The notes beneath the pieces were generated by a model. That model searched no databases. It was not told where the DNA came from and saw only the letters and a list, made by a program, of their open reading frames with translations. Below, piece after piece: positions 1,685 to 38,930 of a stretch of DNA of 64,000 nt; the stretch's first letter is position 1, and each line of letters opens with the position of its first letter. This DNA comes from Candidatus Methanomethylophilaceae archaeon. GTDB taxonomy: Archaea; Thermoplasmatota; Thermoplasmata; Methanomassiliicoccales; Methanomethylophilaceae. The translations under genes were made by a program, and so were the position numbers. The stretch covers positions 363-64,362 of the forward strand of contig JAFYAH010000051.1 of the NCBI GenBank assembly GCA_017540825.1. The letters run 5' to 3'.

Positions 1685-4228
1685 TCATTCGGACCCTTCC
1701 TTCTCGGGCTCGGAACCCTCTTCCGGCTCCTCCGCCCCGACCTCCGAGAAGGCTTCGGTTATGGCCTCCACCTCGTCGTCAGAGGGCTCCGCCATTATGG
1801 GCTGCACGGCCACCACCTTGTCGTCGTCCCTCATGTCCATGAGCTTGACCCCCTGGGCGTTGCGCCCGGTCTCGCGGATGGCGTCGGTCTCTATGCGCAG
1901 GACCTTCCCGGACATCGAGGTGAGCATCAGATGGTCCCCGGGGGCCACCTTCCTGACGCTGAGGACGTTCCCGTTGCGCTCGTTGCAGATGATGGTTATC
2001 ACCCCCTGCCCGCCGCGGTGGTGCTTGGAGTAGGCCTCCACGTCGGTTATCTTGCCGAACCCGTTCTCGGTGACCGTCAGGAGCTTGTCGCCGGACCTCA
2101 CGATGGCCATGGAGACCACCTCGTCGTCCTCCGTGAGCCTCATCCCGATCACCCCGGAGGCGGTCCTCCCCATGGGGCGGGCCTCCTCCTCGGAGAACCT
2201 GATGGCCTTCCCGCGCTTGGACGCCATTATCACGTCGTCCCCGGCGCTCGCGATGTCGGCCTCGATCAGCTCGTCGTCCTCCACGTCGGGGTTCTCGTCG
2301 GTCCTGAGGACGATCGCCTTGATCCCCTTGGAACGGACGTTGCCGTAGGCGGACATGGCGGTCTTCTTGACGCGCCCCTTCTTCGTGCAGAACACGATGA
2401 ACTTGTCGTCGGGGAAGTCGGGCGTGCACACGGTGTTAACCACGCGCTCGTCCTCCTCGAGGTCGGGCAGGAGGTTCACGATAGGCTTGCCCTTGGACTG
2501 CCTGCTGCCCTCCGGGATCCTGTATCCCTTGAGCCAGTGGATGCGGCCCTTGTTGGTTATGAACAGGACGTAGTCGTGGGAGCAGGTCACGAACATGGAG
2601 TCGACATGGTCCTCCTCCTTCGTCTGCATCCCTGTCAGGCCCACGCCGCCGCGCCCCTGCTGCCTGTAGGTGCTCAGCGGGATCCTCTTGATGTAGCTGT
2701 CGCGGGAGAGGGTGATCACCACGCGCTGCTTGGGGATCAGGTCCTCCTCGTCGCTGTCCAGCGGGTTGGGGTCGATGACGGTGCGGCGCTCGTCGCCGTA
2801 GGCGTCCTTCATCTCCTTCAGCTCGGACTGGATGATCGCGTTGATCCTGGACTCGTTGGCGAGGATGTCCCTGAGGTCGGCCATCGTGATCTCCAGCGCC
2901 TTGTACTCGTCGCGGATGGAGTCCAGCTCGAGGCCGGTCAGCTTCTGGAGCCTCATGTCGAGGATGGCCTTGGCCTGCTCCTCGTCGATGCCCAGGAGGC
3001 CCCTCAAGCCCTCGTTCGCCTCCTCCACGCTCGCGGACTCGCGGATGAGCCTTATGGTCTCGTCGAGCATGCCTATGGCCTTCATCAGGCCCTCCAGGAT
3101 GTGGAACCTCTTCTGCGCCTGGGCGAGGTCGTACTCGGTCCTGCGGTAGACCACGGACCTCCTGTGCGCTATGTACTGCAGGATGAGCTCCTTCAGGGAC
3201 AGGACGGACGGCCTGTTGTCGACCAGGGCTATGTTGATGATGCCGTAGGTGACCTCCATGTTGGTCTTCTTGAACAGGTTCTCCAGGACCACGGCGGAGA
3301 GGGCGTCCTTGTGCAGCTCGATCACTATGCGCATCCCGTGCCTGTCGGACTCGTCCCTGAGGTCGGTTATCCCCTCGATCTCCTTGTTCTTGACGCGGTC
3401 GGCGATCTGCTCGATGAGCATGGCCTTGTTGACCTGGTAGGGGATCTCGTCCACGATGATGCGGTCCTTGCCGTTGCCCATCTCCTCGATGTGCGTGTTG
3501 GCCCTGACCTTCAGCCTCCCGCGCCCCGTCTCGTAGGCGGAGCGGATGCCGCCGATGCCGTAGATCGTCCCCCCGGTGGGGAAGTCGGGCCCCTTGATGT
3601 ACGCCATGAGGTCGTCCAGCATGGCGTCGGGGTGGTCTATCACGTACGATATGGCGTCGCAGACCTCCCCGAGGTTGTGCGGAGGCATCTTCGTGGCCAT
3701 GCCGACGGCTATCCCGTCGGACCCGTTCACCAGGAGGTTAGGGAACTTGGAAGGCAGGACGGAGGGCTCCTTGAGCGACCCGTCGTAGTTGTCCACCATG
3801 TCCACGGTGTTCTTGTCTATGTCCGCCAGCAGGTCGCTGGCCATCTTGGACATCCTGGCCTCGGTGTAACGCATGGCGGCGGCGCCGTCCCCGTCCACCG
3901 AGCCGAAGTTCCCCTGCCCGTCCACGAGAGGGTACCTGAGCGAGAACGGCTGGGCCATCCTTACCATGGCGTCGTACGCCGCGGTGTCCCCGTGCGGGTG
4001 GTACTTACCCAGGACCTCTCCCACCACGGTGGCGGACTTCTTGTGCGGGCGGTTGTACGTGAGGCTGAGGTTGTCCATGGCGTACAGGATCTTCCTGTGC
4101 ACCGGCTTCAGGCCGTCGCGGACGTCCGGGAGGGCGCGGCCGACAATGACGCTCATGGAATAGTCGATGTAGGAGCGCTGCATCTCCTTCTCAACCGACT
4201 GGATGATGATCTTCTTCTCTCCTTCCAA
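1685..4228 (-). CDS. gyrA: DNA gyrase subunit A.
   Basis: 847 aa. N-terminus [43 protein letters not shown] and [10 protein letters not shown] are classic GyrA. TTG start at 4228 is required to keep the conserved N-terminus. It lies 4 nt after the gyrB stop. Confidence 0.97.
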
Positions 4229-4232
4229 GGTA

Positions 4233-6401
<2,169 letters not shown>

Positions 6402-36010: not shown

Positions 36011-36529
36011 TCAATCGTCGCCGACGACCGAGCGTATGTACTCGTTCTGGATGCGGACGACCTCGGAGCTGTCCTTGGCCTTAGAATAGTCCTCCAGCAT
36101 GGCGCCGTTCAGCCTCAGGAACTCGGGCGCCCAGTTGAAGCGAGGGAGGAACGCGTCGGCCTGCTCCCTCTCCCCGAGGATTATGAGCGAGGCCATGACC
36201 GCCTCCGCGCTGTTGAGCTCCATCGGCCTCCCCCAGTTCACAGGGTTGGACGCGAGGAGGTACGGCAGCGCGCGCTCCTCCACCCTCTTCAGCCTCGGGA
36301 ACTCGTCTATGTTCGTCCACGTCAGGTCCATCACCACCAGCCCCCTGCGGGCATGGCGGACGTCGTCTGGAGCAAGAGCCCTGTCGGAGAACGGGGACAG
36401 CACGACGGACCCCGACGGTATGGCGCCCAGCGTCTTGGCCTCCTTGGCGAGCCCGAACTTCAGCATGCGCTTGGCGGTGCACTTCTTCGGATCGCACTGG
36501 CATTTGTCGTAGACGACGACCGGGATCAT
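36011..36529 (-). CDS. tsr3: 16S rRNA aminocarboxypropyltransferase Tsr3.
   Basis: 172 aa. DKCQCDPKKCTAKRMLKFGL... and LLASNPVNWGRPMELNSAEA are typical Tsr3/DUF367 blocks. Confidence 0.8.
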   Translation of the reverse strand: MIPVVVYDKCQCDPKKCTAKRMLKFGLAKEAKTLGAIPSGSVVLSPFSDRALAPDDVRHARRGLVVMDLTWTNIDEFPRLKRVEERALPYLLASNPVNWGRPMELNSAEAVMASLIILGEREQADAFLPRFNWAPEFLRLNGAMLEDYSKAKDSSEVVRIQNEYIRSVVGDD

Positions 36530-37002
36530 GCGGACACCAAGGACTGGAGGGCCTCGGGGTCCTTCATGTTCACCTCGACCCAGCCCTTCACCTCTTCCAT
36601 GGACTTGAGGTACTCCTCGTACAGCTCCAGGTCGTCGGTGGCCTCGAACTCTTCCCTGGTGCGCATGGGGGCGAGGATCTGCTTCCCCTTCCAGGGGGTG
36701 CGGGACGCCCATTCGTCGAAGGTCGCCTTCTCCAGATAGATAACAAGGTCGTAGTCCTCGTCCTCCCTGAGGTAGTCCCTGTCCTTGAAGTCCTTGGAGA
36801 CCTGCCTCCTCAGGTCCTCCCCGTTCTGGTAGAGCGCGGAGATCATCTCGCAGTCGATGAAGTCCTTCTCGGGCCCGGCGCTGTACACGTCGTAGGCGTC
36901 CGGATAGAGCTTGTTCGCGAAGTGCTCCGCCATCTGTGAGACGAAGTCGTTCTTCTGGTCTATGAACAGCACGCGCAGCTTGGTGGGCTTCTTCTTGAAC
37001 AT
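36526..37002 (-). CDS. LMW-PTP/ArsC-fold protein with a degenerate P-loop.
   Basis: LRVLFIDQKNDFVSQMAEHF aligns to V-L-F-V-C-x-G-N-x-C-R-S-x-M-AE, but the catalytic Cys and Arg are replaced (D, V). ATGA overlap with tsr3. Confidence 0.5.
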   Translation of the reverse strand: MFKKKPTKLRVLFIDQKNDFVSQMAEHFANKLYPDAYDVYSAGPEKDFIDCEMISALYQNGEDLRRQVSKDFKDRDYLREDEDYDLVIYLEKATFDEWASRTPWKGKQILAPMRTREEFEATDDLELYEEYLKSMEEVKGWVEVNMKDPEALQSLVSA

Positions 37003-37141
37003 GATGGCGGAGGATTCCCCATTGCGTAGATAATGTTTGGTTTCCGGAGCCTCGCCTAGGGCACGGGAAGAGCCTAAGCTGCCCCACGATCGCTGGCTCG
37101 GCTAACGAAACGGTTATGTGCATCCCCAAGGATACTCGCCC

Positions 37142-37201
37142 GCCACGATGATGATCGTTTTTTCGAGCTGATCATGATGATAGACGGGCGAGCTGAGTGG
37201 C
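37142..37201 (+). ncRNA. C/D box sRNA (2'-O-methylation guide).
   Basis: GCCAC-G-AUGAUGA(C)-13 nt-CUGA(D')-UC-AUGAUGA(C')-12 nt-CUGA(D)-GUGGC. Perfect box consensus, canonical guide lengths, and a 5-bp terminal stem. Confidence 0.88.
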
Positions 37202-37203
37202 CT

Positions 37204-38616
37204 TCACGGTTTCGCCGGGTTCAGCAGCGAATCCCTGTAGTCCTCGAAGGACAGCCTGTCTGGAAGCTTGATGCCGAGGCTCTTGAACATCTTCGACGCG
37301 GCGGAGCTGGCTTTCTCCACCTCTGCGTCGCCGTCGACGGAGCACATGACCGACTGCGCCGTCCCCAGGGCCTCCGAAGGGCTCATGCCGCACTCCCAGA
37401 GCCTGTCGGAGACGACCCCCCGCATGTGGTCCGCCAGGAATCCGCAGACCGCCATGCCGCAAGCCTCCTGCACAGAAACGTCCGCTGGAACGTGCGCCGC
37501 CCTGCATGACGCTTCCGCCACCAGCCCGGACGCGTATGCCTCCGCCACCAGGTCGGCGCTCCCGCCCTTGTTCGAGACGAGCACCTGGAACATCGGGGAC
37601 GGGGTCTCGAAACGGCCCATGTCGGCTACGACGTAGGCGTATGCCTTCCTCCCGAAGAGCTCTATCTTCTTCCTCATGGCGAACAGCTCCCTGCCGTCCT
37701 TCTCGAACACGCACTCCTTCTCGCCCACGTGCTTCAGGGCCTTCTGGCAGAGATCCTTGTAAGGGAGACCCTTCTTCGAAGGCATCGCGGCGATGAACGT
37801 CATCCCGGACTCGGGGCCGTACGCCTTGAACAGGGACTCGGTCACATACTCCTCGCCCAGGATCGCCACGCCGTCCCCTCCGTGGTCCAGAGCCCAGCGG
37901 CCGGGGTCCACCACGGGATCGCATCCGACCGGCTTTCCTCCGACGCCGTCGAACTCCAGCATCATCCTCGGTCCCCTATAGTCTGTCGCGTCGGTGTAGA
38001 ACGGCACCCTGTCGGTGGCTAGCATGTCCCTGACAATCGCCTTGGCCGATGCTGACCCCATCCTATGGTAGTACTTCTTGTCGTTCGTCGACTCCTTCGA
38101 GAACATCTCGTACGCGAAAGACCTCTCCAGCAGCTGCTTCAGAGGGATCCTGGAGCCGTCGGACGCTATGCTCTGCATCATGCGGACTATAGTCCCCTCG
38201 TACAGCGAGTCGTCGGCCAGGTATCCCTTCATATCCGACAGCAGGCCGGTCGACCTCATCGTCTCGAATGCCAGATATACGTCGCCGAACACCTTGTGCT
38301 TCCCCGAAGCCTTCTTCGGCGCGGCTTTCGGAGAGGTCGCAGGCTTCTCGGGAGGGGCCTCGACAGGCGAGTCGTCGGGATCGAAGAAGCAATCCTTGTC
38401 CACGTCGTACCCTACGAGGCCGCGCGTAGGAGACATGAAAACGCCCCTGCGCTTCGAGTCGTCGAGGCTCACCACCTTCCCGAGCTTCTCCCTCTGAACC
38501 TGCTTGGAATGGTACTTGCCGTCCTTCACATAGACGACGTCCATTATCACGGCGCTCCCGGAACGAACGCTGCCGTCCTCGTTGCGAACGAGCTTCTGAA
38601 CCTTGATAAATGCCAT
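37204..38616 (-). CDS. Hypothetical protein with weak resemblance to IS1634-type transposases. DDE triad not identified.
   Basis: The N-terminus MAFIKVQKLVRNEDGSVRSGSAVIMDVVYVKDGKYHSKQVQREKLGKV and the C-terminal tail resemble IS1634-family proteins. No terminal inverted repeats seen. An alternative ATG 38748 overlaps the AbrB stop (ATGA). Confidence 0.35.
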   Translation of the reverse strand: MAFIKVQKLVRNEDGSVRSGSAVIMDVVYVKDGKYHSKQVQREKLGKVVSLDDSKRRGVFMSPTRGLVGYDVDKDCFFDPDDSPVEAPPEKPATSPKAAPKKASGKHKVFGDVYLAFETMRSTGLLSDMKGYLADDSLYEGTIVRMMQSIASDGSRIPLKQLLERSFAYEMFSKESTNDKKYYHRMGSASAKAIVRDMLATDRVPFYTDATDYRGPRMMLEFDGVGGKPVGCDPVVDPGRWALDHGGDGVAILGEEYVTESLFKAYGPESGMTFIAAMPSKKGLPYKDLCQKALKHVGEKECVFEKDGRELFAMRKKIELFGRKAYAYVVADMGRFETPSPMFQVLVSNKGGSADLVAEAYASGLVAEASCRAAHVPADVSVQEACGMAVCGFLADHMRGVVSDRLWECGMSPSEALGTAQSVMCSVDGDAEVEKASSAASKMFKSLGIKLPDRLSFEDYRDSLLNPAKP

Positions 38617-38744
38617 GCGACGTGAGTAGCGCATGTGCGTTAATATTGTTATCCCTATAGTGATACCTGAAACCCATGCGGAAATAGCCGGAATCGCGGC
38701 TGAGCCGGCCTCGCGGACTGCGAACGGCCGGCGGCCGGAGTACT

Positions 38745-38930
38745 TCATCTATTGCTCGAATCCTCGCCTTTCCATACAAGCTTCCCAGCGCGGATCACGA
38801 TGTCCTCTCCCGATTCTATGAACACCACATAGTCCCCCTCGATGATTTTGAGGCGCTCCTTCACAGCCTTGGGGATAGCTATCTGCCCTCTGCCCGACAC
38901 CTTGGCTTCTGAAATGAAATGGTCTGTCAT
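38745..38930 (-). CDS. AbrB/MazE/SpoVT family DNA-binding protein (antitoxin-like).
   Basis: 61 aa. KVSGRGQIAIPKAVKERLKIIEGDYVVF is the swapped-hairpin SpoVT-AbrB signature. Confidence 0.75.
   Translation of the reverse strand: MTDHFISEAKVSGRGQIAIPKAVKERLKIIEGDYVVFIESGEDIVIRAGKLVWKGEDSSNR

Follow-up and report, generated by a model that had tools for sequence, protein, structure and literature searches.

A conserved box C/D sRNA with an invariant guide in Methanomethylophilaceae, a candidate for RNA-guided ribose methylation at the 16S rRNA decoding centre

A 64,000-nucleotide (nt) stretch of contig JAFYAH010000051.1 (Candidatus Methanomethylophilaceae archaeon, assembly GCA_017540825.1), which is called the window throughout, carries a 60-nt element at positions 37142–37201 of its forward strand. 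Its sequence and that of its relatives strongly support the view that this is a small RNA (sRNA) gene of the ordinary archaeal box C/D type. One of its two guides, the D guide, is practically invariant across the family and pairs over eight nucleotides with the decoding centre of 16S ribosomal RNA (rRNA), where it may direct ribose methylation of the nucleotide equivalent to Escherichia coli C1402. Both the sRNA and, tentatively, this target had been proposed in an earlier note made from the sequence alone.

Read directly, the element is GCCAC G ATGATGA TCGTTTTTTCGAG CTGA TCA TGATGA TAGACGGGCGAG CTGA GTGGC, exactly as described in the earlier note, with perfect C, C′, D and D′ boxes, guides of 13 and 12 nt and a terminal stem of 5 base pairs (bp). 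The D′–C′ linker, reported there as 2 nt and unusually short, owes that value to a box C′ counted as 7 nt; it measures 3 nt here and 3–5 nt among homologues. A strict search for the C/D′/C′/D four-box pattern on both strands returned this single match in the whole window, none were returned in 300 dinucleotide-preserving shuffles of it, and the analytic chance expectation is 3.4e-6. The sRNA has every structural feature of the archaeal box C/D class: a total length of 58–62 nt among homologues with a D spacer of 12 nt, as is usual for the class in size, and internal D′ and C′ boxes that, as judged by the 3-nt linker and covarying variants, could fold into a K-loop. The length of the D′ spacer is partly canonical (13 nt in the window, 11–14 nt among homologues). 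The element departs from the class in two respects, namely complementarity to a target, as tested on rRNA, and membership of a curated Rfam family.

Tsr3, encoded beside the element, is a small-subunit rRNA aminocarboxypropyl transferase that modifies the P-site region. A search with Tsr3, taking one genome per species, yielded 80 loci, nearly all of them titled Methanomethylophilaceae or Methanomassiliicoccales and sampled from gut, rumen or termite; from this origin of its relatives, the host of the window is a mesophilic, host-associated methanogen of the same family. Homologues of the sRNA, recognised by the exact string AGACGGGCGAGCUGA, were found in 56 of the 80 loci, in the genera Methanoplasma, Methanogranum, Methanoprimaticola and Methanarcanum, nearly always directly upstream of, and divergent from, the operon of an LMW-PTP-like gene and Tsr3. 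About nine of the loci lacking it are truncated, and about fifteen have sufficient upstream DNA but no sRNA found upstream of the operon (L005, L008, L011, L015, L016, L019, L025, L029, L040, L041, L046, L050, L060, L068 and L083). One of these, L005, is the genome nearest to the window species, with 91% Tsr3 identity.

In an alignment of the 41 distinct sRNA sequences (A2), boxes C and D and the C′ core UGAUGA are invariant or nearly so, while the flanks are divergent. Within the terminal stem, 98.5% of alignment cells are paired, as compared with 20–42% in slid controls, and one of its pairs has changed on both sides, from A-U to G-C, in 10/41 sequences; none of 500 shuffles matched the observed cells paired, cells changed on both sides or covariation score. 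Variation within the internal boxes is also coordinated: D′ CCGA occurs mostly with C′ UGACGA (C·C, four loci) and D′ CGGA with C′ UGAAGA (A·G, one locus), the homologues with K-loop variants being L034, L036, L047, L082 and L055. On these sequences the non-canonical U·U position (3b·3n) of the predicted C′/D′ K-loop covaries, as natural variation. By its conservation pattern, the sRNA is a clean family-wide conserved RNA and not a chance match.

Archaeal promoters have a B recognition element (BRE) followed by a TATA box and then by a proximal element. Across 53 distinct homologous upstream regions, with positions counted relative to the first stem base, A/T content reaches 74–81% (mostly A) at −34..−32, 75–98% at −29..−23 and 96% at −10 (37132 in the window). 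The TTATGTG element that had been pointed out upstream lies at 37114–37120, inside the TATA-like block at −29..−23 that is common to the family. By analogy, these blocks resemble the three promoter elements in turn, which would place the transcription start about at the stem and would make the sRNA an independently transcribed unit. The four boxes, the covarying stem, the 12-nt D spacer, the putative promoter and the 56 homologues all bear out the identification of a C/D box sRNA at this position.

Rfam models gave a mixed answer to the search that the earlier note had recommended. At gathering score there is no C/D match in the whole window, and only one tRNA elsewhere in it; in a relaxed search, about 15 archaeal C/D families align at 37144–37198 (+), i.e., on the element itself, all below gathering and led by sR2 (27.9 bits, E-value (E) 2.4e-4, gathering 42), snoPyro_CD (24 bits) and sR1 (21.5 bits). 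Since the C/D families of Rfam are guide-specific, such a sub-gathering pattern argues for a new family and not against the class. The window sRNA shares with archaeal box C/D sRNAs (snoPyro_CD RF00095, sR2 RF01139, sR1 RF01152) the box order RUGAUGA/CUGA/UGAUGA/CUGA, the 12-nt D spacer, the 5-bp stem and the length of about 60 nt. It differs from them in its own guide sequences, in a D′ spacer of unusually variable length (11–14 nt) and in its mesophilic gut methanogen host. Rfam matches listed before for the order comprise sR1 in Candidatus (Ca.) M. alvus and, at CAJE01000021.1:94629–94682, in M. luminyensis; snoPyro_CD is listed for both of these and for Ca. M. intestinalis (PMC4153887 Table S1). 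The sR1 match of Ca. M. alvus at 1654828–1654883 (+), with E 0.0011, agrees with the window sRNA in order, Rfam model and length (PMC4153887) and is probably its orthologue. These published entries are bare low-significance matches, with no sequence, target or conservation analysis attached.

The two guides of the sRNA contrast sharply. The D spacer is 12 nt long in 56/56 homologues and 11 of its 12 bases are invariant (AGACGGGCGAG); only the 12th base changes (U 45, G 10, A 1), giving the variants UAGACGGGCGAG (45 copies), GAGACGGGCGAG (10) and AAGACGGGCGAG (1). The D′ spacer, on the other hand, occurs as 20 distinct sequences among the same 56 and in lengths of 11 (10 copies), 12 (16), 13 (27) and 14 nt (3), with only its ends kept (UCG... 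and ...UCGAG). Archaeal C/D spacers are normally held to about 12 nt (PMC7229835; for spacer and size also PMC7994747), and a D spacer fixed at this length points to the D guide as the functional, selected guide. The D′ spacer is under relaxed constraint and probably has a chiefly structural role, forming the other half of the ribonucleoprotein (RNP); at most, it would touch the 3′ domain of 16S in a weak accessory contact. The best rRNA match of the window's D′ guide extends over 7 bp (−7.3 kcal/mol) at 16S CUCGAAA, corresponding to E. coli 1283–1289, and by the N+5 rule (the target nucleotide lies opposite guide position 5) it would address A1287. It is the conserved 3′ part, UUUCGAG, that pairs with this site, and the decoding site follows 118 nt downstream. 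In most cases the D′ guides reach 7 nt; a few variants from other genomes attain 8–9 nt at scattered rRNA sites, in comparisons not paired with the rRNA of their own genome. The 16S site itself varies between CUCG and CCCG, and no compensating D′ variant (UCGGG) was seen in sets of sRNA and 16S that are not matched per genome.

Neither the window nor the 80 loci contain rRNA, and the sequences compared with the guides were drawn from other records. E. coli (L085) and a haloarchaeal rRNA operon on a plasmid record (L086) served as references. From metagenomes, 120 Methanomassiliicoccales 16S loci were retrieved via the order-specific primer AS1, 42 of them full-length, and the family set consists of 17 genes of a host-associated clade, 90–99% mutually identical; one contig of this clade comes from the termite metagenome that also yielded an sRNA-bearing metagenome-assembled genome. 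The family 23S is represented by one full-length gene (L254:1275–4188 (−), 2682 bits against LSU_rRNA_archaea), from an organism that may or may not carry the sRNA. It was located by way of S12 and chorismate synthase, starting at 16S and guided by the 16S–23S spacing of Ca. M. alvus (PMC4153887 Table S1), and PyrG on its contig is 87.5% identical to PyrG of a clade-A 16S locus.

In these sequences the best site for the D guide, by far, is the 16S decoding centre, 5′-ACCGCCCGUCA-3′. Guide positions 3–10 (5′-GACGGGCG-3′) are complementary to 16S C1400–C1407 and form a continuous duplex in 17/17 family 16S genes; the earlier note had equated the core CGCCCGUC with E. coli C1400–C1407 and placed N+5 on C1402, and this equivalence is correct. 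G37188, at guide position 5, makes a Watson-Crick pair with the C1402 equivalent, and mismatches fall at A1398, C1399 and A1408 (guide positions 1, 2 and 11). Seven of the eight pairs are G-C, with −15.3 kcal/mol for the core and −18.3 with dangling ends; the next best duplexes are those with a bulged 16S site, at −14.3, and with a 23S site, at −14.2 kcal/mol. Elsewhere in the 17 family 16S genes the D guide forms no run of 8 or more Watson-Crick pairs, and no run reaches 7 in the one family 23S, where the best site, CUCACCGGUCUA, has two internal mismatches. A perfect 11-nt complement, CUCGCCCGUCU, occurs only antisense to the sRNA gene itself, and this 11-mer and its 10-mers are either missing from 2.19 Mb of family DNA or do not recur in it. 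Among the eight tRNA types examined in that DNA, the D guide reaches at most 7 nt (tRNA-Ser GCU, 3′ end).

Several observations speak against this target. Archaeal target prediction usually asks for at least 9 consecutive pairs (PMC4644070), and the decoding site offers 8; a complement of at least 9 bp, which the earlier note had made its own check, was found neither for the D guide nor for the D′ guide of the window in the 17 family 16S genes and the one 23S. Among shuffled guides 17.5%, and among random 12-mers 24%, reach an 8-nt run covering position 5 at some place in the rRNAs compared, and −18.3 kcal/mol is reached by 6.3% of shuffled guides; by itself, the match is of weak significance only. 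Positions 2 and 11 of the guide never vary although they face mismatches in 16S (A·C and A·A1408), which hints at a different, fully complementary target. Duplexes long and stable enough for catalysis usually have 9–10 bp, over positions 2/3–11. Furthermore, a substrate with 8 bp was left unmodified in vitro, in a thermophilic system at 50–70 °C (PMC7229835), and seven surveyed archaea have no predicted guide for the C1402 position (PMC4644070).

The probability that a random guide would fall on C1402 in this exact register is about 5e-5. We take yeast 18S C1639 to be the equivalent of E. coli C1402, and human SNORD43 to be the counterpart of yeast snR70, guiding 18S Cm1639 (Cm, 2′-O-methylcytidine). 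C1402 of bacterial 16S is N4,2′-O-dimethylcytidine (m4Cm), the ribose methyl being added by RsmI (PMC2831307, PMC5053481, PMC11551388), and in yeast 18S Cm1639 is guided by snR70 (PMC5699541). Within Archaea, guides have been predicted for the neighbours A1408 and, in a mesophile, G1494 (PMC4644070). As for the unpaired ends, guide position 1 binds no substrate, core pairing takes place at positions 3–11 and pairing beyond is not selected (PMC7229835), so that unpaired positions 1–2 are nothing unusual. Both D and D′ are preceded by CGAG in the window, which suggests a structural rather than a target constraint at these positions; the Pyrococcus C/D consensus in the Rfam alignment also has aG ahead of CUGA. 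Excess pairing is inhibitory at lower temperature (PMC7229835), and more than 10 bp of such a G+C-rich duplex might hinder release at 37 °C.

We ranked C1402 first because N+5 falls exactly on a ribose whose methylation is among the very few that Bacteria and Eukarya have in common, no other rRNA site is available in the genes compared and Tsr3 is encoded next to the sRNA in most genomes with the latter, and also because the lack of pairs 1–2 is normal and 8 G+C-rich bp might suit release at 37 °C. That the D guide directs ribose methylation of the C1402 equivalent is, on these comparisons, plausible, with about an even chance of being right. Boxes C and D, closed by the terminal stem, would fold into a kink-turn and boxes C′ and D′ into a K-loop, and L7Ae, Nop5 and fibrillarin, core genes of the order (PMC4153887 Table S5), would assemble on the two motifs. 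During small-subunit maturation, guide positions 3–10 would pair with 16S C1400–C1407, and fibrillarin would 2′-O-methylate the nucleotide opposite guide position 5, i.e., the C1402 equivalent in the P-site/decoding centre. The kink-turn, the K-loop, RNP assembly and the methylation itself are proposed here by analogy with the known mechanism of the C/D family, and the target pairing by comparison of sequences. We further propose, more tentatively and at somewhat less than an even chance, that this is a sole-purpose C1402 guide, one of the very few C/D guides of a mesophilic gut archaeon, with a minimal 8-bp duplex and conserved flanking mismatches that perhaps aid release at 37 °C. Placed head-to-head with the Tsr3 operon, it would form a P-site modification locus, and the same ribose would be methylated in the three domains of life by RsmI, by snR70 and its human counterpart, and by this sRNA.

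Other explanations have to be weighed against this proposal. It is hardly credible that the boxes are a fortuitous or decaying intergenic arrangement with no function: such a view could invoke the lack of any Rfam family at gathering and the roughly 15 loci with enough upstream DNA and no sRNA there, but it is effectively refuted by the conservation pattern, with 56 homologues that keep invariant boxes and guide between divergent flanks, compensatory changes in the stem and in C′/D′, promoter elements at fixed spacing and a chance expectation of 3e-6. A more serious alternative, although on balance we consider it unlikely, is that the C/D sRNA is genuine and its D guide addresses another RNA containing the full CUCGCCCGUCU (tRNA, 5S, RNase P, signal recognition particle or other non-coding RNA), the 16S match being coincidental. 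The invariance of 11/12 guide bases, including positions 2 and 11 that stay unpaired with 16S, would then be explained, 8-nt runs are common by chance, and about one third of archaeal sRNAs have no rRNA complementarity, many of these matching tRNAs or 5S (PMC4644070). On the other hand, in the 2.19 Mb compared neither the 11-mer nor its 10-mers recur, the tRNAs found there, a few types out of the full set of tRNAs and non-coding RNAs, give at most 7 nt, and N+5 exactly on a nucleotide that is methylated in the other two domains would be an unlikely coincidence.

It is also conceivable, and we regard it as decidedly improbable, that the main role of the sRNP is that of an RNA chaperone or assembly factor for the 16S 3′ domain and not of a methylation guide, its D guide holding 1400–1407 and its D′ guide 1283–1289 until late maturation. 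The best family-16S contacts of both guides do lie in the 3′ domain, 118 nt apart, short duplexes flanked by mismatches would be easy to release, and dual-guide chaperoning has been proposed (PMC4644070). Such a role fits poorly with a D′ contact of only 7 bp (−7.3 kcal/mol), with the changes in D′ spacer length and with a 16S site that alternates between CUCG and CCCG with no compensating D′ variant seen in data not matched per genome. The D guide, moreover, keeps its position-5 G-C pair and its exact 12-nt spacer, which are needs of catalysis and not of mere binding.

A number of other leads were followed and discarded. When the D guide is paired with 16S CUCG(AAA)CCCGUC (−14.3 kcal/mol), a bulge arises next to the target nucleotide, which is incompatible with known C/D recognition. 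In the lowest-energy fold, the 5′ flank ACUCGCCCG (37134–37141) pairs with the D guide; we attribute this to chance since the flank is not conserved in the homologues. The 23S H41/42 hairpin has partial matches to the guide at homologous sites in E. coli and the haloarchaeon, and none in the metagenome contigs or the family 23S. A 23S domain I site beside the hairpin labelled 'LR3' gives 9/11 in the haloarchaeon, and yeast has GCCGCCCGUCU there; the family 23S reads GUGUAGUUCGGUUAGAAAACCGA, which rules the site out as a D target. When the same site was approached through spurious antisense open reading frames (ORFs) on 23S rDNA, the covering matches encoded ..RFSKRTT.. or other non-matching variants. 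Matches of 9–10 nt to mRNA and other targets in the 2.19 Mb are scattered and non-recurrent, and a scan of viral contigs for CTCGCCCGTCTTGAAA returned 39 matches, all in protein-coding contexts and attributable to chance. One record that seemed to link 16S and 23S (L136, OOCI01002992.1, 6200–9602) is a chimera of a Methanomassiliicoccales-type 16S and a bacterial-type 23S joined at conserved rRNA. A literature search for the guide or target strings found unrelated primers only.

Table 1. Features of the sRNA and its surroundings, in window coordinates.
Feature	Position	Strand	Remark
Box C/D sRNA gene	37142..37201	+	60 nt including the 5-bp terminal stem
BRE-like A-rich block (37108–37110) and TATA-like block (37113–37120)	within 37108..37120	+	positional A/T profile
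Terminal stem, 5′ half, GCCAC	37142..37146	+	partner is 37197–37201
Box C, AUGAUGA (consensus RUGAUGA)	37148..37154	+	UGAUGA invariant; first base A 35, G 21 among homologues
D′ spacer/guide, UCGUUUUUUCGAG, 13 nt, variable guide	37155..37167	+	20 sequences among 56 homologues
Box D′, CUGA	37168..37171	+	CUGA in 47/56 homologues
D′–C′ linker, UCA, 3 nt	37172–37174	+	homologues 3–5 nt, sequence free to vary
Box C′, UGAUGA	37175..37180	+	UGAUGA in 51/56 homologues
D spacer/guide, UAGACGGGCGAG, 12 nt, invariant guide	37181..37192	+	position 5 upstream of box D is G37188
Box D, CUGA	37193..37196	+	invariant in all homologues
Terminal stem, 3′ half, GUGGC	37197..37201	+	same covariation basis as 5′ half
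Divergent operon, LMW-PTP-like gene and Tsr3	36011..37002	−	context, not part of the RNA
LMW-PTP-like gene	36526–37002	−	Pfam LMWPc, E 4.9e-7
Tsr3	36011–36529	−	Ribo_biogen_C, E 2.8e-40, and Fer4_RLI; 4-nt overlap with LMW-PTP-like gene
514-aa ORF	37204–38748	−	ends 2 nt from the sRNA 3′ end

The LMW-PTP-like/Tsr3 operon next to the sRNA is present in 80/80 family loci. The LMW-PTP/ArsC-like protein lacks the catalytic CX5R(S/T) P-loop in the window and in L005, L015, L029, L040, L046, L060 and L068; in its place stands VLF(I/V)D-x-(K/x)ND-x-x-SQ, where an invariant Asp occupies the position of the nucleophilic Cys. From its sequence, the protein appears to be a phosphatase fold that has lost catalysis and is obligately coupled to the 16S aminocarboxypropyl transferase. 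On the other side, the name transposase-like used in the earlier note finds no support: the gene is a 514-aa ORF that matches nothing in Pfam, NCBIfam or PADLOC. A gene of the AbrB family, 61 aa long (TIGR01439, E 1.3e-10), lies upstream of this ORF and overlaps it by 4 nt, the pair spanning 37204–38930 (−). Among the family loci, this pair occurs only in the window species and in L027 (49% identity), and looks like a variable inserted module of two genes.

Beyond this one, no C/D sRNA was found either in the window or across about 0.8 Mb of other Methanomassiliicoccales loci, a scarcity that fits what is known of guides in mesophiles (PMC7994747, PMC4644070). In L129 (ERZ1026854 NODE-281), two copies of the 16S primer site lie about 3 kb apart at 2788–5865, i.e., tandem 16S genes, which is unusual for an order described with single, unlinked rRNA genes. 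In the family, 16S and 23S are separated by about 15–21 kb that hold PyrG, S12-S7-EF2-EF1A-S10, IlvD and aromatic amino-acid genes (L249, L254, L257; PMC4153887 Table S1), and the gene order between them differs among genera.

If the predicted target is right, the sRNA would perform the same function as yeast snR70, namely RNA-guided ribose methylation of a decoding-centre cytidine (PMC5699541 Table 1). Eukaryotic snoRNAs are longer and pair more extensively, whereas the window sRNA would pair over only 8 bp, and no homology can be claimed beyond the guide core that the target itself dictates. Bacterial RsmI, which forms m4Cm together with RsmH, would modify the same ribose if the prediction holds (PMC2831307, PMC5053481); it is, on the other hand, a protein-only, site-specific enzyme that acts on 30S subunits with no RNA guide and is evolutionarily unrelated to the sRNA.

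C/D guides are poorly catalogued outside thermophiles, and for Methanomassiliicoccales there have so far been only weak, unexamined Rfam matches. The sRNA described here provides the family with a marker RNA, and its invariant guide yields a prediction from sequence, namely Cm at the 16S C1402 equivalent, guided by RNA through a minimal duplex. Should that target not be confirmed, the sRNA would be one more orphan guide. If the prediction is true, an 8-bp G+C-rich duplex would suffice for guiding in a mesophile, which bears on the thresholds used in archaeal and eukaryotic target prediction, and archaea would maintain ribose methylation of the decoding centre by means of an RNA guide.

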